From the NCBI GenBank assembly GCA_000091205.1, contig AP006487.2: a stretch of 64,000 nucleotides of DNA, one strand, 5' to 3'. The notes under the pieces were generated by a model, which ran no database searches, was not told the origin of the DNA, and worked only from the letters and a program-made list of their open reading frames with translations. The position numbers were made by a program, and so were the translations under genes. Every line of letters starts with the position of its first letter. The first letter of the stretch is position 1. Shown piece after piece: positions 6,138 to 54,472 of this stretch. This DNA is from Cyanidioschyzon merolae. Lineage: Eukaryota.

Positions 6138-6336
6138 GTACTGTACTGTACTGTGCTATACTGTACTGTACTGTACTGTGCTATACTGTACTGTACTGTA
6201 CTGTGCTATACTGTACTGTACTGTACTGTGCTATACTGTACTGTACTGTACTGTGCTATACTGTACTGTACTGTGCTATACTGTACTGTGCTATACTGTA
6301 CTGTGCTATACTGTACTGTACTGTACTGTACTGTAC
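6138..6336. repeat. Pentanucleotide microsatellite (ACTGT)n with periodic GCTAT variant units, ~200 bp
   Basis: Direct reading: 'tactgtactgtactgtgctatactg...' repeated. It generates three overlapping artefactual ORFs (5901-6503, 5975-6565, 6124-6495) translating to 'TVLYCTVLYCAILYC'. Confidence 0.9.
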
Positions 6337-17154: not shown

Positions 17155-19398
17155 CTACGGGCACGCATGTTGAATCACGACATCCGAGTACCGACGCTGA
17201 ACGAGTTCAGCTTCGGATCTGCTCTGAACGAGTATCCAGATTGAGCGTATCTCCCGTGTATGGAGACAGAGGCGCCAGGGCGTGTGATTTGCATCCGCAT
17301 CAGATGCTTGTCGCGAATCACGGGGCCAGAGCACTGGTGTGCGTCCGATGACAACGCCACGAGCGGCATCGAGCACGGTTACCACTGCTGAGGTTCGGGC
17401 TGCGTGCAATCGTCCGCGACGATGGCGGATCAGGACTTCATCTCGCAGTTGCCAGCTGCTGCAGAGACAAAGTTCCCCCTTTGAGACATCGTCCCGCGGG
17501 ATGTCCACTCGATATGCGCACTGCGCGGGGAGCGATACGGAGCTGAAGTTGGAGCTGGAGCTGGAGCCGGAGCCGCTGTTTGGCCTATGTTCGAGCAGAT
17601 CGAGGTCGCTTCTGCGCGCTGCAGCGCGACTCGTGTGGCGTTCCTGGATCTTGGCGATCGAGCAATTCGCGCCTGCGTTCAGCGCGACGACTTCCCGGAG
17701 AAATCCCCCCGTGAGCAGTGCTCCGAGTTCAACGCAGTACTTGCAACTATTCATGCTCACGGGCAATCGCAGATAGACGCCGGCAGTGACCCCAGGGTAC
17801 ACCAGGTCCGACGGGTCTATCTCTGGGAGACGGCTTGTCTGCAGTATGCCGAAAGCTTCGCGCCAAACATAGACACCGCTCTGGTTAATGGAAATCGTCT
17901 GGTGAACGGGAGCAAGCATGATATCCGGATCCCCGGTCCCAATGATTGACGTCTCAACTGTGACGAGGACACTCGATCCACCTAGGAAGTAGTGTGGTGC
18001 CAGAAGCGAGCCCCATGGAGCGATCGAGAGTTTCGGTTTGTCCTTCTCGAGCGCGAGCACGTCGCGAAGCAGGTTCACGGACCCGAAGCCCCCGGGATCG
18101 CGCTCCAAAAACGCAATCACATTCCTGAGACCAGCGTCCGGCGTTCGTCCATGAGCGGGCCTGTATGTCGTGAACGCATCCACAAGGTCTCGCGCGAACA
18201 GAATCCCATCGACGGACTGGTCGGTTTTACGCACGTGCGACCACGTCTGGTTCAGCGAGTACATCGATATTCGTTTTGCTGACGAGATGCAAAGATTCAG
18301 ATGCGCGCCAACGTAAATGACCCGCTCAATGCCTCGTCCTTCGAGGACAGCAACGAGCTCCACGAGATCGTCGGCAACGAGAACATCATTCTCGGGATCC
18401 ACGTCCAGGAGCGGGTGCAGGGCCGACCAACCGTACTGCTCCTCGCATCGTTCTTGCGGGTCCGCCGAGCACATGCAGCCGGCAGGCCGGGGTAGGACGC
18501 GAGTGCGTCTCGCCGCCTCGTACGCCATGTCCACGATGCTGGTGGTAGCACGTAGGGCGTCCAGCTTAGCTCTTGTCGTGTAGCGTCGGGCGTTATCCCG
18601 CATGCGCCGCTCTCCGGCATTGCCTCGTTGCTCTAGAAATGCGACGATGTCTGTGGGGGCATGGATGACCAGCATGCCACGTTTCCGCGCCTCTCGGAGA
18701 GCAAGATTCAACGGTGGAATAAGCAACCGCTCTATTCTGGATGCTGCGGTCTTGCACCAGTGGGTGTCCCACAGGTCGACTACAATCAATGCCATCCGAT
18801 CGTAGCGCTCCTGTACATAATGCTCTCGTGCGATAATGTTCGGGTTCGAGGCCACACCCCAGCCATCGTCTGCGAACCATGTCGCGTCCATTGCGGTTGC
18901 CATTGGGTCGCTCGCTGGGCCCGGCATCCCAGAGGCCAGTCTTGCAGTATCCACGAACGACTGTCGCAGCGCACGGCGGCGAACAGGAAATGTGGCTATG
19001 CGCCTTGGATAGAGCAGCGGCGCCTGCTCGTCATCCAGCAGCGCTGTGTGATGAGACAAGTCTTGCGACCAGTACGCAGCGTGGACGGCTTTCATCAGCC
19101 CCGCGGTACCTGATCTCGAAGCATCAACTGCATCCGCAAAGTCGTAAACGAATTGGTTGTGAGAATGACCGTTTCGTGATTGGGCAAGCGCTAAAACAAA
19201 CGCTGATGGCGGTTGAAGCGATCCTCGGTACCAGAGCGCAAACCGACGATTCAGGGCGAGTGAGCGCGCGACCAACGCCAGTCCAAGAACAAAGCAAACG
19301 ACAGCACATAGGAAACAAGCAAGCACCCGGAACTTGTTACGCAGGCTCGTACTTCGGACTCTAAAGGGGTTCACTGGCCTCCGTGCTGGTTCTTGCAT
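17155..19398 (-). CDS. Membrane protein with an isochorismatase-like (cysteine hydrolase) domain and a large C-terminal extension
   Basis: 'ALIVVDLWDTHWC...MLVIHAPTD...RVIYVGAHLNLCISSA' resembles the isochorismatase-family pattern (ALLVIDMQNDF...VIHT...VFVCG.ATNVCV). Signal-anchor 'VLACFLCAVVCFVLGLALVA'. The ORF is open to 19800, but those extra 134 codons run through a 100-bp tandem array. ATG at 19398 ('MQEPARR') verified. Confidence 0.5.
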   Translation of the reverse strand: MQEPARRPVNPFRVRSTSLRNKFRVLACFLCAVVCFVLGLALVARSLALNRRFALWYRGSLQPPSAFVLALAQSRNGHSHNQFVYDFADAVDASRSGTAGLMKAVHAAYWSQDLSHHTALLDDEQAPLLYPRRIATFPVRRRALRQSFVDTARLASGMPGPASDPMATAMDATWFADDGWGVASNPNIIAREHYVQERYDRMALIVVDLWDTHWCKTAASRIERLLIPPLNLALREARKRGMLVIHAPTDIVAFLEQRGNAGERRMRDNARRYTTRAKLDALRATTSIVDMAYEAARRTRVLPRPAGCMCSADPQERCEEQYGWSALHPLLDVDPENDVLVADDLVELVAVLEGRGIERVIYVGAHLNLCISSAKRISMYSLNQTWSHVRKTDQSVDGILFARDLVDAFTTYRPAHGRTPDAGLRNVIAFLERDPGGFGSVNLLRDVLALEKDKPKLSIAPWGSLLAPHYFLGGSSVLVTVETSIIGTGDPDIMLAPVHQTISINQSGVYVWREAFGILQTSRLPEIDPSDLVYPGVTAGVYLRLPVSMNSCKYCVELGALLTGGFLREVVALNAGANCSIAKIQERHTSRAAARRSDLDLLEHRPNSGSGSSSSSNFSSVSLPAQCAYRVDIPRDDVSKGELCLCSSWQLRDEVLIRHRRGRLHAARTSAVVTVLDAARGVVIGRTPVLWPRDSRQASDADANHTPWRLCLHTREIRSIWILVQSRSEAELVQRRYSDVVIQHACP

Positions 19399-19487
19399 AA
19401 GCCCAGAGGGCGTTTGCGCTTTTCGAAAGGCGAATCGAAGCCAAAATAGGCGGCGCGAGGATCGTGGCGGCGGCCGTTTCCTACCAG

Positions 19488-19790
19488 GTTCGAACCGCGC
19501 CCCTGTTTGTATACAAGGATATCGGAATACGAGGAAACGAGTACATGAAGCGAACCGGCGTGTACTTTCTGATGTTTGAGTCTCTTTCTTCGAACCGCGC
19601 CCCTGTTTGTATACAAGGATATCGAAATACGAGGAAACGAGTACATGAAGCGAACCGGGGTGTACTTTCTGATGTTTGAGTCTCTTTCTTCGAACCGCGC
19701 CCCTGTTTGTATACAAGGATATCGAAATACGAGGAAACGAGTACATGAAGCGAACCGGGGTGTACTTTCTGATGTTTGAGTCTCTTTCCA
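19488..19790. repeat. Tandem repeat, 100-bp unit x 3
   Basis: 'cgaaccgcgc' recurs at 19491, 19591 and 19691. Units are near-identical, with g/a and c/g variants. They produce phase-shifted artefactual ORFs (19464-19679, 19576-19779, 19371-19646). Confidence 0.9.
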
Positions 19791-20285
19791 TTTTTATCAA
19801 CAGTAGCCTTTTCGGGATTTTTCTTTGAATGCTTGCTTTTCCGCTCCGTTGTTTTCGGATTTTGAAAGCACTCGCCGGGTGCGTCCGGTGAGCTACGTTT
19901 TCATCAGTCCAAGAGTGTTGATAGCAGCGATCATGAGACAGTTTTCGACGACTCCAGCTGCTTCAGCGTATTGCATACGCAGGTGGTGGTTGCGATGTAC
20001 GCTTCGTCTGCCATTTTCGTTTGCTCTCTTGACAGCGTCAGAGCGCTTTTCTCAGCGGTGATAATTGACTATGCACGGGTCTTCTCATATGCCCATAACG
20101 TATAGTTCTCTGGGCGCCATCTGGTGCCTCGTGATGGCTTGCTTCATCGTCTGGTATATGCCTCTGGTGGCTGCCGAAAGTCTCCCTGGATGCCCTCCAC
20201 CGTTTCTGCGCTCAGTGCCGGACACAACGATCACGGGGATCATCTGGGCAATGCCCCAGCGAGTGCACTGTCCACAGCACGGGCA

Positions 20286-22228: not shown

Positions 22229-22910
22229 CTTACGAACGCAAAGGGATACGGGGCGTTGACGACCCCCAGTGAGTTCTGGAGTTGTCAGAGAGGATTCCGC
22301 AGACTCTTCAGAGTCCAGACTTGTTTTCGGGCCGTAAGACGCATCCCATGCGCGCATCCGGGCCTGGGTGCTCGTCGCCCGGTCTTTTGGGGTGTTCATG
22401 ACCAGCGTTGCACCAAAGAGGGCGACATTCATGACTGCAATTTGTCTGGTTTTTTCGACTCGGCGGTACGCTGGAGTAAGGACTTGTCTGTGGGATTCCA
22501 GCCGTTGACCCCGATTGCAGCTGCGCTCAAAGGCGATGTGAGCGCTCAGAGCGGAGCTCGCGTGCTCGTTAACTGCGAAAAATGCTTCCGGATGCGTGCT
22601 CGGTGCTCTACACCGGTGTCAGGTTAAACTGGAACACAAAACTGCACGATGTGTTCTCGAACAGTCGTTTTGTTTCGGAATTTTTTTTAAATGTACAGGT
22701 TCAAAATTCGACGTGGAGCGATAAGCATTCACGGATTCTTGCATGGAGCTAGGATTCTCGGTCAGTTTTTTGGAGTGGCCGTTTCGACGCTTACTGCTGG
22801 AATCGATTGCGTCACTAGAATCAAGGCGATTCGCGACGTTCTCGAACAAGGCTTCGTTAAATATCTGATATCAGTCTCCGATGCATCCGTAAAATCTCCT
22901 CTCTTCTCTC

Positions 22911-23396
22911 TTGCTTGTGTGTAGCATTTCCGAGTCACGCATTCTTCAAGCTTACATTCTTTCTGTATTACGGCAACTTGTGAGCGCAGCAATTCGCGCG
23001 GCTGGATGTATGAGAAACATCATTGACTGCGCCTTGGCGACTTTTTCAAACACTGATGCCGACACTTCACGGAAAGTTTCACATCAAAAAATCGAATCCA
23101 GTAGGAAGGCATATCCTCATGTCTCTGTAACCATCGACGAAACGGCATACGACAGCAGCATGAAAGCGCGCACGGATATGCCTCCAGAAGCTCCAGTCGC
23201 CTCCTTCGGTGAGAACACGTCTCGGATCCAGGCTGTAGCGACTGCAACAATCGCTTCCGGTGAAGCGTACGTCGCCGCTTTGCGACAAGGGAGCGTTGTC
23301 GAATCGGCATTTCTCGACTTGATATCCAGGTTGCATTCACTTTTCGGGACTTGTTTTATCGTGGAACGCTTGGCGTTCCACAAAACCTCTATCTAA
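22911..23396 (+). mobile_element. Degenerate Tc1/mariner-like transposase relic (copy b), truncated after the second D motif
   Basis: 'VSVTIDETAYDSSMKARTDMPPE' and 'CFIVERLAFHKTS' are homologous to copies a and c at about 70% nucleotide identity. Homology continues upstream to ~22860. Confidence 0.5.
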
Positions 23397-26300
23397 TGGA
23401 ACAGCGTGCGCCTGTGTGTGCTGCACAAGGAATATTCGTAGAGGTGTCGGCCAGAAGAAGCCTGTGATCATAGGATTCGGTATCGGGCGCTAAAACTGCG
23501 GATGCAATAGAGGCGAGCCCTCTGTATTCGCCAAGGGCATGTACCAGGGAGTTAAGCAAGCGTTCGCACACCACTGCGCGGCGCCTGGTGGTGGAGGTAT
23601 ACTAGAAATACGGGAACACGAGGTAACATCCAAGTGTCGCTGCTATTAAGAGCGTACAGAGGCGCTTGACGAACAAGTCATGTATGGCAAGCGAAGCATA
23701 GACCGAATGTATCATCTACGCGTGAGATGCGACCCCAACAGCTATTAGCTGTGAACGCAGAAATATACCCCTCCAGTCAACATCCTGCGTCTGATTCAAA
23801 CGGTACGGGATCGATAAGAGAGACTGGTGTATGTAAAGCCAAATCTACAAGGACACAAGACGAAGCTGTAGCCGAATACTCCGCAACGGCTGTTTTTCAT
23901 GATACGCGGGAGAAACCGAACCTTTAGCGGGTGCGGAAGCGTTAAGGGATCCGTCCTATTTTATTCCGGCGCGAGCGTATGGCTACGACCTGCACCGTCT
24001 CTCGTCCGCTACCAGTACCAGCGCGGGTGGCATTACTAATGGTATACAGAGCATGTAGCCGGATGCACCAAGACTGACGATTTATGGCATGCTTTGATGA
24101 ATACGCAAATGTTGTGACGAATGACACCAAAGCCCGCGGCTTGTGTCGACATGCGGCACGCTGCTACTTGCGTGGTGTGTGGAACCCCAGCTCCCAGCCT
24201 CAGCTCGAACCGCATCTGAAATGGAAGCTCCCAGAAACGCCCGAAGCTATGATGCATATGGCTCAGGAGTCGATGCCGGAATGCCGACCTACCTGGTGAA
24301 GAGATTCCACAGCCATCAGTGTGGCAGTGTTTCTCGGTAGCTGCTCGTACTGGTCGCGTGCAGGCACTGTGGCCCCCGCAAGCCCTGCATGCAAAGCGTA
24401 TAAGACCAAAGGGTTGGCTTCAACGTTACCTGTATGGATAAGAGGTGCGCTTTCTGAGTTTCCAGTACCCAGCGATCTTCCTGGATCGCGTGGCGACATG
24501 ACAGTCCCGCGTTTCGCTTGTGATGATCAGATGATCGGTTGAGTCGTGATGCACAGGACGTCGGAAAAACGCGTTGCGAAATGCTCGCCATCAGAGAAAA
24601 CTAGAATCTTCCGTGTTACAAAAGGCATGAAGCCGATCGATATGTCCTCGCTTCAAATTCCGGAAGTTTGGATACGAACGTCTGCTGTGCGTCTGCATTC
24701 GCCGGAATCGGGTGTTTAGCCTAAAGCGTTCCGGGAAATGCCATGGCAGCGAAGGACAGCTCGTCAAGAGCCTACGGAACGTTGAAGCCGCCATACAGCG
24801 AGGATGCTGCTCTTCAACCTGGTTAATAGGCAGCACTCGCGCATCCAGAAAATTTTGGTGAGCATGATAGATTTTACATCGTTAGTGACTGCCATTGGAG
24901 ACGCGTTGTCAGTCTGTTTCTCATTTTCCGCCAACGGAAATCACGTGAAACGCATCAGCAAGGATCGCAAACTGCTTCAGGGAACACAGAGCAAGTCTGC
25001 TTCTTGTTTGACGACAAGGCACGGCATGTACATCGCTTTCGCAAGTTTTTTCATACACATTTGATGACCCGGTATGTCGAAGAGATCACCAGCAAGCTGC
25101 ACATGGACAGGTACCAGCATCCTCTTTCATGGTTTGGCCGCTCTGAAAACGATACGGAGCCTAGAACATGCGAAAAACATGTACCCGTTGCAGTTTCCTA
25201 TCTCGTTCACGTCAATGCTCGGCGAATACAATTGCATGCAAAGGCGGCAACAACCATTTTCGGTGGCCTTGCGTGCGCCTCTTCCTGCGGATCCGCACCA
25301 GTACAGCCTTCACGTCGAGGCGAACAAGAGCACACGTATGGAGTATCGCAAAACCCTGAGACGAACGCACGTCTCTTCCCATGATGAAACCTTCACATTG
25401 CCGTGCGCCCCAGCTACGGATGTATACAGTATATGCAAGCATCATGAACACAGCCCGACACGCAAATGCTTGTCGTTTCGCACGTCCACCTTGCAGGGGC
25501 CGCAGAGCCGCGCGCAAACTCAACACCATGCCACGTACACCAAACGTGCTACGCTCTCGTGGCATCTGCTGTCTTCACATAGAACTGTATGACCAAAGCG
25601 GCTGCTGTTATCCTTCCTGTATGGACCTCGCCGTGAAATTCTCAGCACGCAAGCGCTTTGTCGGACTTGAGTGCTTCTCACGAGGCGTGAGGCTGCCAGA
25701 CTCCACGGCGACGCTCTCCGGAGGCGCACAGGCTCCTGCGTGCGTGCGTAGAAGCGGGACGATGCTTCCAGGTATGCACCTTCCACGGACCACGTCTGTC
25801 ATCTATAGTGCATATTCCAACACCCATACCGTATACTTTGGGGTAAAAGCGGTCGCGGAAAAAGTCCAGAGTCTCCAGAAGCGCCGCCCTGCGCGGAGGC
25901 GTCTCACTCGGCTGCGGAAAAACGCGCTGCAACCATGTCAGGTATGCTTGTCTTTCCACTCGATACAAGAGAAACTCACGTGCTTAGGGTAGAACAAAGT
26001 CTCACTGGAAGCATTTAAAGCCTTCAAAGAACGTTGAAGCACCAGTACGAACGTGCGTCTGGGGAAACACAAGTCTATTGTATCGCCTAAGGCGTCAGTC
26101 GCGCTACTGAAATGCGACAGCATTGCCGTTCAGCAGTAGCGGCTCGAGCAGTGACTAGCTCTCCTGTCTGCGACTGCGAAGCGCAGCCAAAGCCTCTTTC
26201 ACCTGGCGCTACCTGCGCGAATAGCTCAAGTTCCACTGCATCCAGTCTAGAACTCAGGTGTGCCTGGGAAAACTGGTTCAGAACGAGCACGGGCTTGGTA

Positions 26301-26449
26301 GCACGCTCACAACGGAAGCAAACGAAGCGTGCCGTGTTTCGTGTTGACGAACGGCTGGCGTCGAATTGACGCTACGGACCGGGGTGTGGCTTTATTTGCT
26401 TCCCACACTTCACTGTGCCCTATTTGATAAAGACGTGCTGTGATCGTCT

Positions 26450-28801
26450 TTGGAGGCGTGCGTTCTTTCGATGAGCTTTTATCCACGTGCAGGAGCTGGC
26501 GGCCCTCGAGCGCTGGGATCGCGCCCCGGCGACCTGAGTGGAGGCCTTGCGGGGAACCGTCCTGCATCGCTGCAGCCAGCTCGCTCGACTTCGGGTCAGA
26601 CAAACTCGAACGAGGCTGTGAGGCTTCTCCAGCTGAGTCCCACTGAACGAGAGGCATACCTTGTCTGGTACCGGGAGGTGCGCGACCCCGCAACCGGTTA
26701 TGTGCCTGGTGACGCAGCAGCTTCGCTTCTGCGCCGCTCTAACCTATACAAAGATCTGCTACGACAAATTTGGGTTTTGGCGGATACCCGTCGACGTGGG
26801 TATCTGGATCAGGACGAGTTTTTTGTTGCCTTGCGACTTGTTGCCATATGCCAACGCGGTGGCGAGCCTTCCCTGGATAGCTTGCGGCGCTTTCGCGGGA
26901 TGCAGCTCATCCCACAAATCGATCCGGCTTCTGCTTCGCGCCCCAGTGCTCAAACAACGCCTGGGGCTGCATCCGCTGCGCAACCGCGCGCTTCTTCTAG
27001 CACCAGCGCTAACCCGGGTGAAACGCTCTCCTGGACGCCAACCTATGAGCAAATCGCAGAATACGATGCGCTCATGCGACAGTATTGTGGAGGCGGTACC
27101 CAGCCGGGTCGGCATCAGTCAGCAGCAAGGCTGGTACGCCTTGCGGACTTGCGCATGACCGGCTCTATCGCGCGGGAGGTCTTTCCGAAACTCTGTCAGC
27201 ATCGCTTAAGCAGTGCCATTCTTCGAGATATCTGGGAGCTCGCCGACCAGGATCGAGATGGGCAGCTGGATTTGCAGGAGTTTCGCTGCGCTGCGCACCT
27301 TTTGACTGTTCTGGGTCGTCAGCCTGCGGACAAGGCGGTTGTGCCGCGCCCACTTCCCCCTGCGCTACGGAAGCAAAGTCTCCGTCTGCGTTTTGGAGAT
27401 GGAGCGAATACAGCGGGCGAGTTTACGGAGGCAGCGCCCTCGGTGCCCAGTGACGCGCTATCGGTTATCTCGTCGCCGAATGCGGAAGTGCCGGCTTCGC
27501 GGAATACGGACCTGGCAGGTGCGTTTTCAGCAGCCAGCAAGTCCGTAGAGGATGCACAGCGTCGCCTGAAAGAACTTCGGGATCATCTGGATCTGCTGGA
27601 AGTGCGAGGTCGTGCACTGGCGGAAAAGAAGCGCGTCACGCTGGCAAACAGCAGTACCAGCACGCTCGAGCGCATCTATGCGGAAGAGCAGGCCTTCGTA
27701 CGAGACGCCCGCGGCGTCGTTGAGGCATGTTTGTTGGATCTGGGCGGAACTCCCGGCCAGTCGCAGAGCGAATCAGTTGCAACGGCGTCAAGACCGGGAC
27801 CCGAATTAGAATCAGAACGCACGATGACCGCCTGGGGTCCGTCATTTTCGTTGAACCTGCAACAGCTGCTTATTAAAGCGAAGAACGAGACAGCCCGGGA
27901 ACGAGCGAAGGTGAAGGTTCTCGAAGAGGAACTCCAGATCGCCCGACGTCAGATTCAAGATATGGTTGCGACCGGGGCTACCGCCCCGGACAAGTTCGGC
28001 ACGGGTCGCACTGAGGGCCATCGTCGAACCCGAAACGTGCACGGGGCGAAGCTCGAGCCCCATGAACCCGGCAAAAGCGCTACACAACGACGAGCGCCAG
28101 GTGGACAGAAGAACGTGAGTGGCTCTCTGCTGGACGACTGGTCCCAAGACGACGCTGATGTGAACGCTGATGACGACGAAGCCCGCAACCAGAGAGCTCG
28201 AAGCAAACGGATCGAGCGCGCAGCGTACCGATTTTCCGCTGAGGAGCAGGTCCCCGAGGACAAGCCAATTGTACGAGATGATCTGGTGGATGTGCCACCC
28301 GAATGGAGTGCCGCTGCGGAGCATGCGCTTTCCGCGAACGAGTCCCGGCAACAGAGCAAGCTGGCCTCCACAGGTACTGCTCGTGGAGCAGCGGATTCCC
28401 GGGCGAGAGGCGACTCGCCGTACCGGCCTCCGCGGTATCAAGGCATGACGCGAGATGCAGCTACCGCTTTTGGCGCTTATATTCAGGACGTTGACGGGGC
28501 CAGAAGCAGACGTTTCGCGGACGACGAACCACGAGATGAGCGTCCTTCGGAGCGGCGGAGAGCGTCTCGCCAAGCGGCACAGTGGCGCCAGACTAGCGTC
28601 GCCGAACCCAGCGAGGATGAGAACTGGCGCAGCGGCAGCGATTACATAGAGGTATCCGAGAGTGTCCACGAGACGACACAGGGTGGCTCACAGCGAGCCG
28701 CCCAGAACCGCTCGGGAGCGATGACCGTCGGCAGCACCGCCGAGGATGACGACGACGAGTGGTCGCGGTCAGCGTCGACTGCTATTTTCAGCTACTGGTA
28801 G
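26450..28801 (+). CDS. EH-domain (Eps15-homology) endocytic adaptor-like protein with two EH domains and a long coiled-coil/low-complexity tail
   Basis: EH1 'YLVWYREVRDPATGYVPGDAAASLLRRSNLYKDLLRQIWVLADTRRRGYLDQDEFFVALRLV'. EH2 'GSIAREVFPKLCQHRLSSAILRDIWELADQDRDGQLDLQEFRCAAHLL'. Heptad-like 'ERAKVKVLEEELQIARRQIQD'. Confidence 0.75.
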   Translation: MEACVLSMSFYPRAGAGGPRALGSRPGDLSGGLAGNRPASLQPARSTSGQTNSNEAVRLLQLSPTEREAYLVWYREVRDPATGYVPGDAAASLLRRSNLYKDLLRQIWVLADTRRRGYLDQDEFFVALRLVAICQRGGEPSLDSLRRFRGMQLIPQIDPASASRPSAQTTPGAASAAQPRASSSTSANPGETLSWTPTYEQIAEYDALMRQYCGGGTQPGRHQSAARLVRLADLRMTGSIAREVFPKLCQHRLSSAILRDIWELADQDRDGQLDLQEFRCAAHLLTVLGRQPADKAVVPRPLPPALRKQSLRLRFGDGANTAGEFTEAAPSVPSDALSVISSPNAEVPASRNTDLAGAFSAASKSVEDAQRRLKELRDHLDLLEVRGRALAEKKRVTLANSSTSTLERIYAEEQAFVRDARGVVEACLLDLGGTPGQSQSESVATASRPGPELESERTMTAWGPSFSLNLQQLLIKAKNETARERAKVKVLEEELQIARRQIQDMVATGATAPDKFGTGRTEGHRRTRNVHGAKLEPHEPGKSATQRRAPGGQKNVSGSLLDDWSQDDADVNADDDEARNQRARSKRIERAAYRFSAEEQVPEDKPIVRDDLVDVPPEWSAAAEHALSANESRQQSKLASTGTARGAADSRARGDSPYRPPRYQGMTRDAATAFGAYIQDVDGARSRRFADDEPRDERPSERRRASRQAAQWRQTSVAEPSEDENWRSGSDYIEVSESVHETTQGGSQRAAQNRSGAMTVGSTAEDDDDEWSRSASTAIFSYW

Positions 28802-29849
28802 AGCAGGCGTGGTGCCTGCTTACTTTTCTAGCGCAGATACGATGCTTCTGGACTTGGTACGTGAGCAAAACGGGAGGAATTTTGGCCGAACAAAGTCAGC
28901 AAGTGTATAAACGCGGTTCAAGCGAGCACGTCACCTGATTCCAGGTTCAACATGTCGCTTGTCTCGAGAATAGAAGCCACGGATTCGAGTGTTGGGAAAC
29001 GCCTCTGGGTACCTGGAAGTACGCGCCGTGTCGGCTATGTTGCCGACGCCAGCGACAAAAACGAAAACAGGTCACCGATGGGGATGTATGCGCTCTCCAA
29101 CAACAGCCGTATAGACACAAAAAGGCTGCGGTCCGTCTCTTGCCTACGTTATTCTAATGTCGATGAAATATCCCCGCTCGATGCATTGCCAGAGGCATTG
29201 GACGATTTTTTGGTCCAGCGTCGAGTGTGAATAGCGTGGGCAGCGCCAGACGCATCGTCCAGGCCGAACAGCGACGAAGGAATCGGTGCAGGTCAGCCCG
29301 GAGGCGTTTTCTTTGTCATCACATTGCGAGACGCTTCATGGCTCATTTGAGGGACTTGAAAGCGCACGAAATTGGCTTGGATATAACGTCAGCGTATCAG
29401 GTTACACATGTGGATACAGGACCTGAGCCGTCGACACCAAAAGAGCATTGTTGAAGCGTGCACTTTCAGGGCGTACACAAGCAACCATGCTGACGGGTCT
29501 GGAGCGATGTATCGAAGCAGATACACTCGGATACGCGACTAGTGCAGATTTATGGGAAGCGAAGTCATTTCTCGTGGAGCGCTATTGTCTGCGACTGGAC
29601 TCTGGTCAGTTTTTACTTTGGAATAAACGCATGATCGATCTGGACACCGTCCGTATGCTGAGCGTATCCGGGGCAGTTGCAGCGTCGCTAGCGACGCTTC
29701 AGCGGTCGCTTGCACATGGACAGGATGACTCGCAGATGTATATGCAGGTGTCCACCGGAGAAACGTACGCATTCAGGTCTCTGTTCCATACGTCAGAAGC
29801 GAGAGTCCCTGGAGCGAGGTCTTGTGACTGGCTATCGACGACAACGGCT

Positions 29850-31195
29850 CATTCACGAAAACGACATTGATTCCAGTCAACGCAACGCTCTGCAGTAGTG
29901 CACCTCTGGATGTGCGACTGCTCGCGTGCGTCCCTCTTCCGTTACACTTCATGTGCATCGATTCAGTCACGAAAACGACATTGATTCCAGTCAACGCAAC
30001 GCTCTGCAGTAGTGCACCTCTGGATGTGCGACTGCTCGCGTGCGTCCCTCTTCCGTTACACTTCTGGTGCATCGATTCAGTCACGAAAACGACATTGATT
30101 CCAGTCAACGCAACGCTATGCAGTAGTGCACCTCTGGATGTACGACTGCTCGCGTGCGTCCCTCTTCCGTTACACTTCATGTGCATCGATTCAGTCACGA
30201 AAACGACATTGATTCCAGTCAACGCAACGCTATGCAGTAGTGCACCTCTGGATGTACGAGTGCTCGCGTGCGTCCCTCTTCCGTTACACTTCAGGTGCAT
30301 CGATTCAGTCACGAAAACGACATTGATTCCAGTCAACGCAACGCTATGCAGTAGTGCACCTCTGGATGTACTGCTGCTCGCGTGCGTCCCTCTTCCGTTA
30401 CACTTCATGTGCATCGATTCAGTCACGAAAACGACATTGATTCCAGTCAACGCAACGCTATGCAGTAGTGCACCTCTGGATGTACGAGTGCTCGCGTGCG
30501 TCCCTCTTCCGTTACACTTCAGGTGCATCGATTCAGTCGCGACAACGACATTGATTCCAGGCAACGCAACGCTATGCAGTAGTGCACCTCTGGATGTACG
30601 AGTGCTCGCGTGCGTCCCTCTTCCGTTACACTTCAGGTGCATCGATTCAGTCGCGACAACGACATTGATTCCAGTCAACGCAACGCTATGCAGTAGTGCA
30701 CCTCTGGATGTACTGCTGCTCGCGTGCGTCCCTCTTCCGTTACACTTCATGTGCATCGATTCAGTCACGAAAACGACATTGATTCCAGTCAACGCAACGC
30801 TATGCAGTAGTGCACCTCTGGATGTGCGACTGCTCGCGTGCGTCCCTCTTCCGTTACACTTCTGGTGCATCGATTCAGTCACGAAAACGACATTGATTCC
30901 AGTCAACGCAACGCTATGCAGTAGTGCACCTCTGGATTTACGAGTGCTCGCGTGCGTCCCTCTTCCGTTACACTTCATGTGCATCGATTCAGTCGCGACA
31001 ACGACATTGATTCCAGTCAACGCAACGCTATGCAGTAGTGCACCTCTGGATGTACGAGTGCTCGCGTGCGTCCCTCTTCCGTTACACTTCAGGTGCATCG
31101 ATTCAGTCGCGACAACGACATTGATTCCAGGCAACGCAACGCTATGCAGTAGTGCACCTCTGGATGTGCGACTGCACGCGTGCGTCTGCGCGCTC
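29850..31195. repeat. Tandem array, 114-bp unit x ~11.8 (satellite/minisatellite), in-frame with 3 (38 codons)
   Basis: 'attgattccagtcaacgcaacgct' recurs at 29866, 29980, 30094 and onward (period 114). Units differ at about 5 positions, with a higher-order pattern. Both strands are open through the array (ORFs 29773-31212 minus, 29867-31261 plus). Confidence 0.95.
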
Positions 31196-31270
31196 ATAAC
31201 ACGCTTCAGCACTTGCAGTAACGTTCGAGTTACGTTTTCTTCTAGTCGCGTGAGACACTAGACTACCGGA

Positions 31271-32443
31271 ATGGAGAAGGTTTGCGACCTGCCTCAGAGT
31301 CCTATATGGAACTGGACTGCGAAGCTCTCACCGACCTCGAGTGGGACGTATACCTCTGTTCCGTTCCCGTCGCATGTTCGGAACGCGTTCAAGCGCTCGG
31401 GAGCCACGTTGACGGAGCGACACGACGCTACAGGCGAGCTGGTTCGTTTACTCGACGACCTCTCCACAGAGTTCCGGTGGATAGCAGCACGCACTCGGGA
31501 AATGTTTGTGAAATCGCTAGAGTCGACACCTTTTACGCCTCGGTTAGTCACACAGCAGTTGTACTTTGCACTGTGTCACGATGGATATGCGTGTCTGTTG
31601 GTTAGTAAAGACCAGAAGGAGCCGATGTCGATACCCCCGGATATGCCGTCCGGGAGTTATGTGATTGTGTTAGTGAGTCTGGATCTTGATGAGGAGCTTG
31701 CGCCCTCAGAAGGCCTCGTGGGCTCCCTCTTCTCCGTCTACAAGCGAAAGACCGCACCTGGCCGAGCCGGTCGGCGCGAGGACTTGCAAGTTTGCTTCGC
31801 TGACCAGGTAGCGGCGGGCTATGCACTTTACGGTAGTTCCACACAGCTCTGCTATTGCATGCGAGGCAATCCCGGAGTGTATCGCTTTGTTTTGCATCCA
31901 GTGGCCAAGCAGTTCTTCATGTGTCGAGGCGGCCCGATCGAGTTCGGTTCCGAGTACGATCGCGGTCGACAGCGCTTGCAGACTGTACTCGCTGTACCGA
32001 CGGAAGCCGCCGGGACCTCTACTGTAGCCTCGGAAGCGAGTGCGCATGTCGTCACACCGATACTGTTTGCTGCTCGAGAGCTTTTCCTCGGTGATGACGC
32101 CTTAGCACAGACCCTGCGTCATCTGGCCGACCAGTATGAGTATAGCGCCGTTCACACGGGTTGTCTGATCGGAGATTTTCATACATTAATGCAGCGAGGA
32201 GGCATTTTAGTTGCGGATAACGTAGACGCCCTGTGCGAAGCAGCTCCAATGGCGTATCTGGCCGAGGAGGCCGGCGCTCGAGCAATCGACCAGCGGGGCT
32301 GTCGCATTCTCAGCCAAAATCTTGGTGGCGATCACCCGCTCCACACCAGAACTTGCCTAATTATCGGGTCGCCAACTCAGCTGGCTCAGTTTGAACAGAT
32401 TCTACAAGAGTACCAGTCGGGCGCAACATCGGCGGATACTTGA
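31271..32443 (+). CDS. Divergent fructose-1,6-/sedoheptulose-1,7-bisphosphatase-like protein (FBPase fold)
   Basis: C-terminal FBPase motifs 'AAGYALYGSSTQLCY' and 'PMAYLAEEAGARAIDQRGCRILS'. The metal-binding 'DPLDGSSN' region reads 'VSLDLDEEL'. Confidence 0.7.
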   Translation: MEKVCDLPQSPIWNWTAKLSPTSSGTYTSVPFPSHVRNAFKRSGATLTERHDATGELVRLLDDLSTEFRWIAARTREMFVKSLESTPFTPRLVTQQLYFALCHDGYACLLVSKDQKEPMSIPPDMPSGSYVIVLVSLDLDEELAPSEGLVGSLFSVYKRKTAPGRAGRREDLQVCFADQVAAGYALYGSSTQLCYCMRGNPGVYRFVLHPVAKQFFMCRGGPIEFGSEYDRGRQRLQTVLAVPTEAAGTSTVASEASAHVVTPILFAARELFLGDDALAQTLRHLADQYEYSAVHTGCLIGDFHTLMQRGGILVADNVDALCEAAPMAYLAEEAGARAIDQRGCRILSQNLGGDHPLHTRTCLIIGSPTQLAQFEQILQEYQSGATSADT

Positions 32444-32805
32444 CGGGGAAGCAGGAACCTAAATGCGAAAAAGGGTCGCAACGGCGCCAGGTGTCAACGC
32501 AGTACCCTGCTGTACCCGGCATGCATCTGCCTCCTCCGGACGAGTTCCGTTGACGAGCAGGACGATGCCCGGTACTCGGCGGATTTCCATGAAACAAAAA
32601 AAACACTGCGAGGTATGCAGACGGGGGCTCGTTGACAGGTCGGGTTTCACCAGCGCATTGCCTCGTCAGGATGTCCATGGCGATGCATGGTCATTGAGAA
32701 TAAGGCAGCGCAAATTGCTGGCAGAACTCTTGTCCTTGTTTTCGCGAGCGCATCTTGAGGACCGGATCCTGCCCTTGTCGCAGCACTCGGCAACAAATCA
32801 TCGTT

Positions 32806-33639
32806 TCAGGGTGTATCCTGTTGCATGGTTGCATCGTGATGCTCGTCCGAGTCCGTTACGTTCTGCGGCGCTTGTTCGGTGCTCGTCTCCGTTGCCGTTC
32901 CACCAGACTTTGGAAACGCGCAGGCATCCAGCAGTGGCTGCACCTGCTCATGTTCGTAAAGATGAAAACGCATATCATCGCCGATGCTGACAACCCCGAC
33001 CGCACAGTTTTCCGCACTCAAGTGCTGATCTTTGGCGGACGCAAGCGTCTCATTCAGTGCCCATAGAGCATGGCGAATAAGCGCCTCTCGAGAAGCCGAT
33101 GAAAACTCATCCATATGACGTTCTAAGTAGGTGCGGGCGCTCTGTGAACGTGCTCCTAATGCCATACCCACGAGATCGTAAACCTCTCCGCTCGGACAGG
33201 TTTGATAGAGGTGAGGGCCACTCTCGTCGACGCCAGCAACTAGCAACCCTACACCATACGGCCGTCGAGAAATGCGTTGTGTGCACTTTTGGCACAGGTC
33301 TGCGACCAGGTGCACGAGGCGTCCAACCGGCATAGCGTCCCCGTAGACAAAGCGGTGTTGCAAGCACTCGTCCCGCATTCTTTTGGTCAAGACGCGGGCA
33401 TCTGCAGCAATACCGGATATGGCAACCCCTATGTGTTCATCAATAGGAACGATCTTTCGTTGGTGCCACGCTAAGTCGGAAAACGAGCGTTTCAGGGCAG
33501 CCAAGACAACGTGCGTTGCTGAGCAGACCCCAACCACCGCGGAGCCCTGTTTCACCGCCTCCATGGCGTACTCTACCTGCAGGAGGCGACCCTGTGGCGA
33601 AAATGTTGTTACATCAGTGTCATACTGGCTGCGGAACAT
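32806..33639 (-). CDS. PSMA1: Proteasome subunit alpha type-1 (20S core alpha subunit)
   Basis: '[37 protein letters not shown]' matches the human PSMA1 N-terminus '[37 protein letters not shown]'. Also '[18 protein letters not shown]'. Confidence 0.93.
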   Translation of the reverse strand: [277 protein letters not shown]

Positions 33640-35195
33640 GCTTCAGACTCGATCTGCTGCAGAAGGCAGGTCTGTGCGTCCGCGACGCGCGCTGTAGTGA
33701 CACGTGACAACGTCCAAGTGGCAAGCGAACACCAGTAGAGGTCGCAGTTTGTCGCCGGTTCAGCGCGACAGCTTCGGATGCTCGCCGGGGACAACGCGAG
33801 GCGTATCGGTTCGGGCATGCGACGTATTGGAGCATGGCGACGAGTTCATCGTGAGATGTGTTCAAGCATGAGACAACCAGCGCCTGTACAAAAGCCTGGA
33901 CTCCTGTTTGAGGCTGGGAACCGTCTGCAACATGCAAGGGTGTGGCGGTGGTTTTGTGACGCCAGGCCAGGTTCATTGCCCAAACGTTTGGTGATCACTG
34001 CAACCGTTGACCGGAAACTGCTCAAGTTACCACCGCGTGTTGCGAAGGCAACGTTTATAGCGTCGCGGTTATAGACATTACCCGTTTGATAAGTGAAATC
34101 GAGGAGGCTACGGAGCTGGATGCCACCAGGACCTGAGAACGCTGCCGGAAGAGCCAAACAACGGCCGCTTCGCGCAGTGCTCGCAAAGACCCAGTTCGAC
34201 TTTGCTGATGCAAGCGCAACGTATCCCACGACTCTGAGTCGTTATCGCATGTTGCGCAACGAGCACGTGTGCAGCGAGTTCCTGGACTGCACCCAGCTGC
34301 AGACCGTGTAAAAGGCACTCCCCGTGATCGGATCTGGTCACTGCGGGGCTAGCTTTTCCTCGAAAACGCGGTTTGTAACGGTTTACTGGTTACGATCGGG
34401 CGCTTCAGCTATGGAGGCAGTTGAGGAACGCACAGGCGACTCCTCCTGGACGCTGATGCAGCTCTGTCGGGTGCAGGTTGTTTGAATGGAGCAGGGCTGA
34501 CGCCCCAGCAACGGATGCAGCATCAATGCCCGGGATGGATCCTACCGAAACACCAGCTGGATTACAGCTTCGTGGAAGCAGTCAAGAGAGCAGCTCTGAA
34601 GCGGAAGATTGTCGCTGGATCCTTGCAGGCATTCGCGACGGCGCTTCGCCCAAACTGTGACGAGTAATACGAACACAACAGGAGTACCCAGCAAGTGACC
34701 TAAGTAAGCAGGCACTCGCGCCTGCATGCTATCGGAAGACGTTTACAACCACAACCGGCGAGCATGCGATATTTTGCCCAGCAGCCTTCATCGATATGTC
34801 ATATAGACATATACGCCGACGTGCGTGCGTGCGTGCAACATAGCGTGCGTGCGTGCAACATAGCGTGCAAAGTCTATCGGCTGCTGCGGCTGCGGCTGCG
34901 GCGGATCGCGCGCCGGCCGCACCCCCGATGCACACGCATTCGCGCATGAACCAGCAGACGCCGTGCGGTATACGGGCATGATTGAGGTCTCCGATCGGTT
35001 GCCTCGTGAACGGACACGTGTCCACGCCCTGCGTTGTCACGCATAGCGCCTGCAGTTTTCGCGCGTAACCTGCGTTCCGCAGCCGGCATAGCGAGAACGG
35101 CACACGGAAATGCGGACGTCGAGGCGGTCACGATCTGAGGCGGCGAATTCGCAGCTGGTGTTGTGATGGCGCTGCACCTCGGGAACATTGAGGGG

Positions 35196-51237: not shown

Positions 51238-52526
51238 TTGTTGAGGATGTGTGGCCTTGGCTCCCGCAGCCGATGCCGGAAAAGCAGCAAGCGCCGCGAT
51301 CCTGTTGGGATCGGACCCAAAACACCAGATCGTGGAAGAAAAAGAACAATTTTGCCGGCGAAAGGAAGAAATATCGTATTTGCTACATGAAGTTAAGGTG
51401 GAGAGGCTCAAGGTGGAGAAGATCAAGGTGGAGAGGCTCGAGGCAGAGAATGTCGAGGTAGTCATCGTAAAGCATGCAGTGTACCAAATCAGATGCGTAT
51501 GCACGTCAGCTCGCTTTTGTGTCGAGTTGAAAACGATGACACCACGTCGCCTTTGTGGGGAATCGACAAATCATGAATTCGCATGCGCTTGTAGCAGTCC
51601 TTCTTTGCTGGAAGCACGCGTCGAACTTGTTTGCATGACGCAATAAAGACGCAAAACCACCGGCAATGCCTCGCGCGAAAGGTACGTACCCTGGTCACGC
51701 ACCAGAGCCCTAATCCATCCGTGAAACATCTTTAGTGGTGCCCCAAGCACCGTAGCAATTGCCCGCAGTACGCGCGGCACTCGACGGTTCACTGGATCGA
51801 TCGAGCCTGTGCTCCTGCCGGAAGCACTGCTCTGGAATCGATGAAACGCGTAAAGGCCTCTGAAAGACACATGGGCTTTATGTTTATGATCGGCAGTCTC
51901 GATAGCACCCGGGCGGCAACAGATTCCGTGCGTCGCTCCAGAGCCGTGGAAACAACCACTGTCGTTGCGCGTCAAAGGTCGATGCACGATGCGTGTCCAT
52001 TTGCTGCCAATGACGTGTCCTGTCACGTCCGCGGCTGCATGCAACGCAGGGTCACCGCTGCCGATGCGATGCATGCACGTCAACGTCCCGTCGAGGCGGA
52101 CACGCGCGGTGTCGACGCTGGTGCCGACATCGCCTCTATGTATCGTGTCGCACGGCGTGTCGTCCATTGGTCTGAATTGCGCTGCGCCCCGCGATTACCG
52201 AAGGCAGAGGACGCCCCAGGAGCTGCTGGCGCTATACGCATGGTGAATCATCGACGCATCCGGCTTTCTGTTCCCATGTGAAGGAGCATGAGTGTATATG
52301 GAAGACACCAAGTCTCTGATATAGAACCTTGTCCACAGATAACGCCAGCCAAATGATAACGCCTCGAATTGTTCAAAGGCTCACGATGATCAGGGGAATA
52401 TCCAGTGCACACGCGTCTGATTGCGTGGTATCTGTAGACTCGCTAAACCATGACTATGGCGCCTTCCGCCAGACTTTGCACCAAATGCAAAAATCCTGCG
52501 ACATGATCGACACATTCGGCCTCATC

Positions 52527-52775
52527 TCCGGAAACGCAGCTGACCTACATGACACGCAGTGGCGCGGCGATATCGTCGGTTCACGGACTTTTTCAATTCA
52601 GCCAACTCTGCGGAAACACAGCTGACCTACATGACACGCCGTGGCGCGACGATATCGTCGGTTCCCGGACTTTTTCAATTCAGCCAACTCTGCGGAAACA
52701 CAGCTGACCTACATGACACGCCGTGGCGCGACGATATCGTCGGTTCACGGACTTTTTCAATTCAGCCAACTCGAG
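52527..52775. repeat. Tandem repeat, 82-bp unit x 3
   Basis: 'ctgacctacatgacacgc' recurs at 52540, 52622 and 52704. It generates three phased artefactual ORFs. Confidence 0.9.
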
Positions 52776-53037: not shown

Positions 53038-54183
53038 TTACGCAACGGGTCTCGAACCAATACCTCGGCGTTGAAAGTCGGCGATCATGGCATCGAGGCC
53101 CTCCTCGAGCGGGACGCGCGGCGCCCAGTCGAGGACGGTGCGCGCCAAATGGATATCCGGCTGTCGGCGACCGGGATCATCGGGTGTCGGCGGCAAATAC
53201 CGAATAGGTCCACTTTTCGGGAGCTTTCTTCGAACCAGTTCAGCGAGCTCCCGAACCGTGAACTCTGTTGGATTACCCAGGTTAACAGGACCAGTGATGC
53301 CCTCTGTATTCATGAGTCGGATCAGAGCGTCCACCAGGTCACTGACGAAACAGAACGAGCGTGTCTGGCTACCATCGCCAAAAATGGTCAGCTCCTCTCC
53401 GCGTAATGCCTGGCCCACAAAATTACTGACCACGCGCCCGTCATTTTCCACCATCCGTGGACCGTACGTATTGAAAATACGAGCGACTCGAATGTCGACA
53501 TGATGCTGACGATAATAGTCAAAGCAGAGCGTTTCTGCCACGCGCTTCCCCTCGTCGTAGCAAGAGCGCACACCGATTGGGTTGACGTTGCCCCAGTAGC
53601 TCTCTGGTTGTGGGTGTACCAGTGGGTCGCCGTACACCTCGCTGGTGCTTGCCAGCAGAAGTCGTGCACCGGTGCGTTTTGCGATACCGAGCATGTTCAA
53701 CGTGCCCAGGACATTGGTTTTAATGGTTTTGATCGCGTTGTACTTATAGTGAAGCGGTGAAGCGGGACACGCCAGATGGTAGATCTGGTCGACTTCCAGC
53801 ATGATGCGCTCCGTGACGTCGTGACGAATGAAGTCGAACCGCGGGTGTCCTATCCAGTGCGCAATGTTCTCCTTGGTACCAGTGAACAACGAATCAAGAA
53901 CAATGACCTCGTGACCAAGCTCCATCAGATGGTCAACTAGGTTCGAGCCGATGAATCCCGCTCCACCGGTAACGAGGATTCGTTGACGCTCTGGGGTGCG
54001 GTTGGGGGCGTGCTGGGCCCTCCAGACCGCCGTGGTGTCTATTGGCGGGACACGTTCATCAGGGTGCGGTGAAACCGACGGTGTCATTGGAGTGGTTATT
54101 CGTGCGTATGCGGTAAAGCCCGAGAGTGAACGTGAGCGCGCCACGAAGCAAAAAAACACCTCTTTAGTCTCGTGGCAGGGCAA
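53038..54183 (-). CDS. UXS1: UDP-glucuronate decarboxylase (UDP-xylose synthase), extended SDR family
   Basis: '[19 protein letters not shown]' Rossmann motif, '[27 protein letters not shown]', 'YDEGKRVAE' (YxxxK), '[10 protein letters not shown]'. About 65-aa N-terminal extension. Alternative start at nt 54087. Confidence 0.92.
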
Positions 54184-54221: not shown

Positions 54222-54472
54222 CGCGCGTATTGTGCTGGTATCGACTCGCATGTAGACTGCGCGTATTGTGCTGGTATCGACTCGCATGTAGACTGCGCGT
54301 ATTGTGCTGGTATCGACTCGCATGTAGACTGCGCGTATTGTGCTGGTATCGACTCGCATGTAGGCTGCGCGTATTGTGCTGGTATCGACTCGCATTTAGG
54401 CTGCGCGTATTGTGCTGGTATCGACTCGCATGTAGGCTGCGCGTATTGTGCTGGTATCGACTCGCATGTCGG
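54222..54472. repeat. Tandem repeat, 36-bp unit x ~7, preceded by an alternating-GC tract
   Basis: 'gcgtattgtgctggtatcgactcgcatgtagactgc' repeated with period 36, with 'gtaggctgc' variants. 'gcgcgtgtgcgcgcgcgtacgcgcg' at 54204-54228. Confidence 0.9.

Follow-up and report, generated by a model that had tools for sequence, protein, structure and literature searches.

Upstream of a gene annotated as 'similar to fructose 1,6-bisphosphatase' (FBPase) lies a tandem array of 114-bp units, through which long open reading frames (ORFs) run on both strands. What is this array: a gene for a repetitive protein, a satellite, or a promoter-proximal minisatellite that controls the adjacent gene? The three options were raised in an earlier note on this DNA. 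Exact protein look-ups identify the window, by which we mean the whole 64-kb stretch of DNA that was analyzed, as DNA of Cyanidioschyzon merolae strain 10D; it lies on chromosome 5, which measures 528,682 bp in the finished genome (PMC1955436). The array and its neighbors are arranged as follows.

26471..28801, + strand: EH-domain, Eps15-like gene BAM79344.1 (Pfam EH and EF-hand domains; exact look-up)
28802..29848, no strand: unique spacer from the stop codon of the EH-domain gene to the array (ORF list)
29849..31186, no strand: 114-bp minisatellite, 11 full units and an 84-bp last partial unit (Tandem Repeats Finder, unit-by-unit comparison, 21-mer spacing)
31187..31270, + strand: unique 84-nt stretch from the array to the start codon, which probably serves the FBPase-like gene as core promoter and 5′ leader (ATG count, TAG conservation, contig ends)
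31271..32443, + strand: FBPase-like gene BAM79345.1 / XP_005535631.1 (Pfam FBPase N- and C-terminal domains; exact look-up; red-algal orthologues)
32806-33639, - strand: proteasome alpha-6 subunit gene BAM79346.1 (exact look-up)

Tandem Repeats Finder (TRF) delimits the array at 29849-31186 (1338 bp), with a period of 114 bp, 11.7 copies, 96% matches, 0% indels and a score of 2431. A 21-mer taken from the unit occurs 12 times at a spacing of exactly 114 bp, against an expectation of 0 in 100 shuffles. The array of about 12 units described in the earlier note is thus borne out, as are the ORFs of 464 aa (+; 29867-31261) and 479 aa (-; 29773-31212) that span it. It does lie close upstream of the FBPase-like gene, at -85 to -1422 from the ATG at 31271, but the gap is 84 nt by the TRF boundary; the 76 bp given previously corresponds to a later end point. 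A search for a sub-period inside the 114-bp unit found none, and the GC content of the array, 0.52, is approximately that of the genome and the window.

The units do vary, as had been noticed, but at more than the "about 5" sites first listed. Unit-by-unit comparison gives 12 variable columns in approximately 6 patches (0-based unit offsets 3; 6 and 10; 28; 41; 63-69; 102-103). The mutation spectrum is odd: 9 of the 12 columns are transversions, and 5 of the 12 sites are packed into the 7-bp patch at offsets 63-69 (e.g. CGACTG, CGAGTG, CTGCTG). Among non-adjacent units, U4 is identical to U6, while U2 and U9, and likewise U7 and U11, differ at 1 site. A higher-order pattern had been proposed; despite these matches, it has no statistical support (mean unit difference at lag 3, permutation p = 0.21; family-wise p over lags 1-6 = 0.79).

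The ORFs of 464 and 479 aa are the most direct argument for a protein-coding repeat gene, which would specify a 38-residue repeat protein on the + or the - strand or, by read-through of a TAG codon, an N-terminal extension of the FBPase-like protein. Such frames arise readily, however: after tandemization, each strand has at least one open frame in 21% of shuffled units and in 66% of 114-mers taken from the window itself, and the open frames of the array are therefore uninformative. The observation that the array is open on both strands stands, but not as a sign of anything unusual. Codon usage also fails to resemble that of a gene. Log-odds scoring, with the genes of the window as training set, gave the array frames -0.008 (+) and -0.025 (-), below every one of the 17 correctly framed window genes (0.023 to 0.162); one segment of the training set (17155-19400 of gene 17155-19800) was out of frame, which blurs the model slightly and makes that segment's own row invalid. 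GC at codon position 1 is 0.53 and 0.50 in the array frames and 0.60-0.68 in the window genes. For the substitutions between units, the earlier note had proposed a comparison of synonymous changes and codon positions, and its outcome is neutral, with no coding bias: 3 of 12 variants are synonymous in the + frame and 2 of 12 in the - frame (neutral expectation 0.27 and 0.25), and codon position 3, which coincides in the two open frames, holds only 3 of the 12, a sample of variants small enough for weak selection to escape.

Searches of 5.8 billion protein clusters with both array frames returned no homologue at E ≤ 0.001, and ATG-start versions of the two ORFs are not in the protein collection. 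Pfam matches of the - frame proved to be repeat artefacts, all with zero significant stretches. Because the accessions BAM79344.1, BAM79345.1 and BAM79346.1 run consecutively, there is no annotated gene between the first two; this and the absence of the ATG-start array ORFs from the protein collection indicate that the reference annotation treats the array as intergenic. Example tryptic peptides of the repeat frames are LLACVPLPLHFMCIDSVTK (+) and GALLHSVALTGINVVFVTESMHMK (-), and the + frame unit contains 3 Cys rather than the 4 counted at first.

The idea of an N-terminal extension draws on the fact that the + ORF shares its frame with the FBPase-like coding sequence and is closed by a single TAG at 31259-31261, 9 nt (three codons) before the ATG. 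By chance alone, two frames would coincide in 1 case in 3. Moreover, the TAG is kept in all environmental contigs, and the N-termini of FBPase-like orthologues align from the annotated Met (MEKVCDLPQSP), so the array is not an extension of this protein. With open frames at chance level, codon usage unlike that of genes, neutral substitutions, and neither homologues nor annotation, the coding reading is rejected in the + and the - frame alike. The option of a repetitive protein gene is unsupported, and the absence of the array from relatives (see below) adds to our view that such a gene is very improbable. Long ORFs across tandem arrays with a period that is a multiple of 3 are not to be called genes.

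Non-coding candidates of other kinds were also considered. No Rfam family reached threshold (best match E = 0.23, 20 bits against a 50-bit cut-off), ARAGORN found no tRNA in the array, and the unit folded no better than its shuffles on either strand (z = -1.20 and -0.02); a structured RNA or tRNA cluster was dropped on this basis. Flanking the array, a search for terminal inverted repeats gave only imperfect inverted matches of 12-13 nt, which is chance level, and a transposon of the MITE or Helitron type was rejected for want of such repeats. A viral origin was likewise rejected, the unit having no match in viral contigs.

A dispersed satellite would occur at many loci; this unit appears, as far as seen, to be locus-specific. 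An exact scan of JGI metagenomes with the unit 21-mer found 5 contigs, all 5 at the array locus and 4 of them ending inside the array, and sensitive blastn detected no further copy in the 64-kb window. For the 16.5-Mb genome, the single-locus call rests on exact-match scans of metagenomes containing a 99%-identical C. merolae-like strain. With the unit present only at this locus in the JGI metagenomes, the viral contigs and the window, the "satellite" option, taken as a dispersed or multi-locus repeat, is unsupported. Two further candidates, a centromeric or dispersed structural satellite and a set of tandemly arranged small RNA genes, have only the tandem organization itself in their favor. 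Against the satellite are the single locus, its length of only 1.3 kb and its average GC content, whereas C. merolae centromeres are AT-rich and not known to be repetitive; against the small RNA genes are the same locus and length together with the lack of any Rfam, tRNA or fold signal. We consider either barely conceivable.

Comparison with relatives bears on both the age of the array and its importance. Orthologues of the FBPase-like gene occur across red algae, and the order EH, FBPase-like, proteasome (-), AMP-binding (-), porphobilinogen deaminase (-) is kept in three relatives: Cyanidiococcus yangmingshanensis, an environmental relative and Cyanidium caldarium, whose FBPase-like proteins are 74%, 75% and 54% identical to that of C. 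merolae, respectively. In all three, the interval between the EH and FBPase-like genes contains no tandem repeat and no unit-like sequence. The lengths of this spacer are as follows.

C. merolae: 2469 bp
C. merolae minus the array: about 1131 bp
Cyanidiococcus yangmingshanensis: 879 bp (contig gene calls)
Cyanidium caldarium: 220 bp (contig gene calls)

Because relatives with the same gene order have no array, it represents a recent lineage-specific insertion or expansion. And because orthologues in the three relatives exist without it, behind annotated spacers of down to 220 bp, the FBPase-like gene does not need the array. A sensitive blastn search for the source of the unit in neighboring and orthologous sequence (the window and contigs L012, L013 and L015) gave nothing significant. 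The same method found no similarity between the unique spacer at 28802..29848 and the orthologous spacers of the relatives. This spacer holds only unannotated short ORFs of 92 and 140 aa, the latter entering the first unit by 22 bp, and ATG-start versions of both were not found in the protein collection. A near-perfect 24-bp palindrome (TGCAGCGTCGCT/AGCGACGCTTCA) lies within it at 29678-29701, approximately 150 bp ahead of the array.

Some observations concern the neighboring genes in their own right. Upstream of the EH-domain gene, 4.2 kb (22230-26450) contain no ORF longer than 203 aa, the longest (25381-25992) having no Pfam match; for such a compact genome this stretch is unusually gene-poor. 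In a phmmer alignment of the FBPase-like protein to human FBP1 (5zwk), K, D and V stand at the positions of the metal ligands E97, E98 and D118, and SLDLDE replaces DPLDGS. Judged from this alignment, the protein may be a paralogue without catalytic activity. Cyanidium caldarium has a gene for a pyrophosphatase-FBPase fusion two genes upstream (L015, 882-3026).

The array is also present, with other unit variants, in environmental contigs whose flanks are approximately 99% identical to strain 10D. In contigs that cross it, 0.7, 1.7 or 2.7 copies are apparent, possibly through assembly collapse, and other contigs stop after up to 3.4 units. Such low numbers are what short-read assemblers give when they collapse or break within a longer repeat, and they are not taken as the true environmental copy numbers. 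The variants in the terminal units can be read, and they vary among contigs as well as relative to 10D. Since the last units differ between contigs with nearly identical flanks, unit composition turns over fast. In practical terms, short-read assemblies of C. merolae-like populations break or collapse at this locus, and it could serve as a variable-number tandem repeat (VNTR) marker for typing strains of hot-spring Cyanidioschyzon.

Where does transcription of the FBPase-like gene begin with respect to the repeats? Contigs of 1.4-2.7 kb from several samples (L016, L018-L020, L022-L024; region 31191-33757) span the FBPase-like and proteasome genes, or in the case of L024 the proteasome gene only, with most ends falling 37-230 nt before the start codons of these genes. 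They look like cDNA assemblies of convergent mRNAs overlapping in the 363-bp spacer. Four contigs of approximately 2.5 kb (JGI, Logan; 2.2-2.7 kb) end at 31191, 31221, 31229 and 31234 and, on the other side, 70-177 nt upstream of the proteasome ATG, with all ends in unique sequence. For contigs of approximately 5.4 kb, the lengths suggest a similar end close to the 5′ end of the AMP-binding gene. Three contigs (L017, L021 and L018) extend 31-228 nt further upstream, into the array, and three that are possibly RNA-derived (L004-L006) cross a collapsed array, and there may be low-level transcription through the repeats. The Lemonade Creek project in Yellowstone, a possible source of such contigs, in which a C. 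merolae 10D-like alga was reported, comprises DNA as well as poly-A and RiboMinus metatranscriptomes (PMC11662350). A 175-aa ORF at 32463-32990, which is called in many assemblies and overlaps the 3′ end of the proteasome gene on the opposite strand, is probably spurious.

The distribution of start codons is also relevant. On the + strand there are 26 ATGs in the array and 0 in 31167-31270, an ATG-free run that begins in the last partial unit. An mRNA begun inside the repeats would bear many upstream start codons because of the 26 ATGs. Together, the contig ends and the ATG-free leader tip the balance, modestly, toward a main transcription start downstream of the repeats.

The array is one of several in the window. 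Five further minisatellite-like arrays have periods of 25, 100, 82, 36 and 92 bp, and the TRF-reported arrays together make up approximately 4% of the window. Since the window holds five more, intergenic minisatellites appear to be commonplace in the C. merolae genome. Four of the five are placed as follows.

6138-6336: (GTACT)-based 25-bp array, 8 copies, in a spacer between convergent genes
19489-19788: 100-bp array, 3 copies, at the 5′ end of the long minus-strand ORF 17155-19800
52525-52772: 82-bp array, 3 copies, in a spacer between convergent genes
54223-54469: 36-bp array, 6.9 copies, lying upstream, at approximately 136 bp, of ATG 54087, which is the first in the minus-strand NAD-epimerase-like ORF 53038-54183

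The 205-aa ORF that runs through the 36-bp array is spurious. At the 100-bp array, an environmental contig (L009, 1591-1790) has one copy fewer, seen as a 100-bp offset shift; the difference may be genuine or a product of collapse during assembly.

The label "promoter-proximal minisatellite" fits where the array lies and the class to which it belongs. The array ends 84 nt before an ATG. Control of the adjacent gene is a further step. One version holds that each unit supplies binding sites or excludes nucleosomes, so that copy number tunes FBPase-like expression in the manner of unstable promoter repeats in yeast. The location at -85 to -1422 suits this idea; at least one other minisatellite in the window, the 36-bp array, lies a short way upstream of a start codon, the 100-bp array is at the 5′ end of another minus-strand ORF, and unit composition differs among natural strains. 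It is opposed by the three relatives, whose orthologues have no repeat, by the lack of any motif in the unit shown to exceed chance, and by the possibility that apparent differences in copy number are products of assembly collapse, and we judge it unlikely. In a more elaborate form, the array would be a copy-number-variable upstream element that sets the expression of a red-alga-specific, possibly inactive FBPase paralogue, or that supplies alternative transcription starts within its units. If this were true, natural C. merolae populations would vary in FBPase-like expression through repeat expansion and contraction; we consider it decidedly unlikely. A modest effect of the array on FBPase-like expression is possible. 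In C. merolae, homologous recombination is easy, which offers a simple test of whether a promoter-side minisatellite has an effect.

Taken together, our results argue that the array is a locus-specific, non-coding minisatellite between the Eps15-like and FBPase-like genes, of Cyanidioschyzon-lineage origin, encoding neither a protein nor a structured RNA and having an effect on expression that is probably nil or small; we give this reading a probability of roughly 0.85. The array would have arisen in the Cyanidioschyzon lineage after its split from Cyanidiococcus, most likely growing from a 114-bp stretch of the spacer by replication slippage and unequal sister-chromatid exchange. Gene conversion would then hold the units at approximately 96% identity and shuffle the few variants among them. 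These three processes are general mechanisms of minisatellites. The array more than doubles the spacer, which measures 2.47 kb with it and about 1.1 kb without it. The FBPase-like gene is probably transcribed from a start in the unique 84 nt or in the last partial unit, and because this start would lie downstream of the repeats, the array would constitute upstream promoter-region DNA. The finished C. merolae genome is known for very few repeats. The array adds one more minisatellite to this finished, repeat-poor genome, and carries little biological weight.

A search of the literature on C. merolae tandem repeats and minisatellites found nothing specific to this locus, and the closest comparisons come from other organisms. 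Like the coding tandem repeats within genes for yeast FLO adhesins and parasite surface antigens, the array has a period that is a multiple of 3 and long ORFs throughout; unlike them, it has no codon bias, homologues or annotation, its substitutions are neutral, and it is absent from relatives. Vinces et al. reportedly described unstable tandem repeats in yeast promoters in 2009. The array resembles these in lying upstream of a gene in a compact, intron-poor genome, but the yeast repeats are mostly short and AT-rich and act on nucleosome occupancy, whereas the unit here is 114 bp long with 52% GC. The array fits best with minisatellites and VNTR loci, whose units of about 10 to 100+ bp form arrays of roughly 0.1 to 20 kb. 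Its unit falls at the long end of their usual range, and its copy number is blurred by short-read collapse, but the repeats are strictly tandem and locus-specific. Like these loci, of which human promoter VNTRs such as the INS VNTR are examples, it consists of head-to-tail units at one locus in non-coding intergenic DNA, forms a mosaic of variant units, and differs in unit composition between closely related strains.
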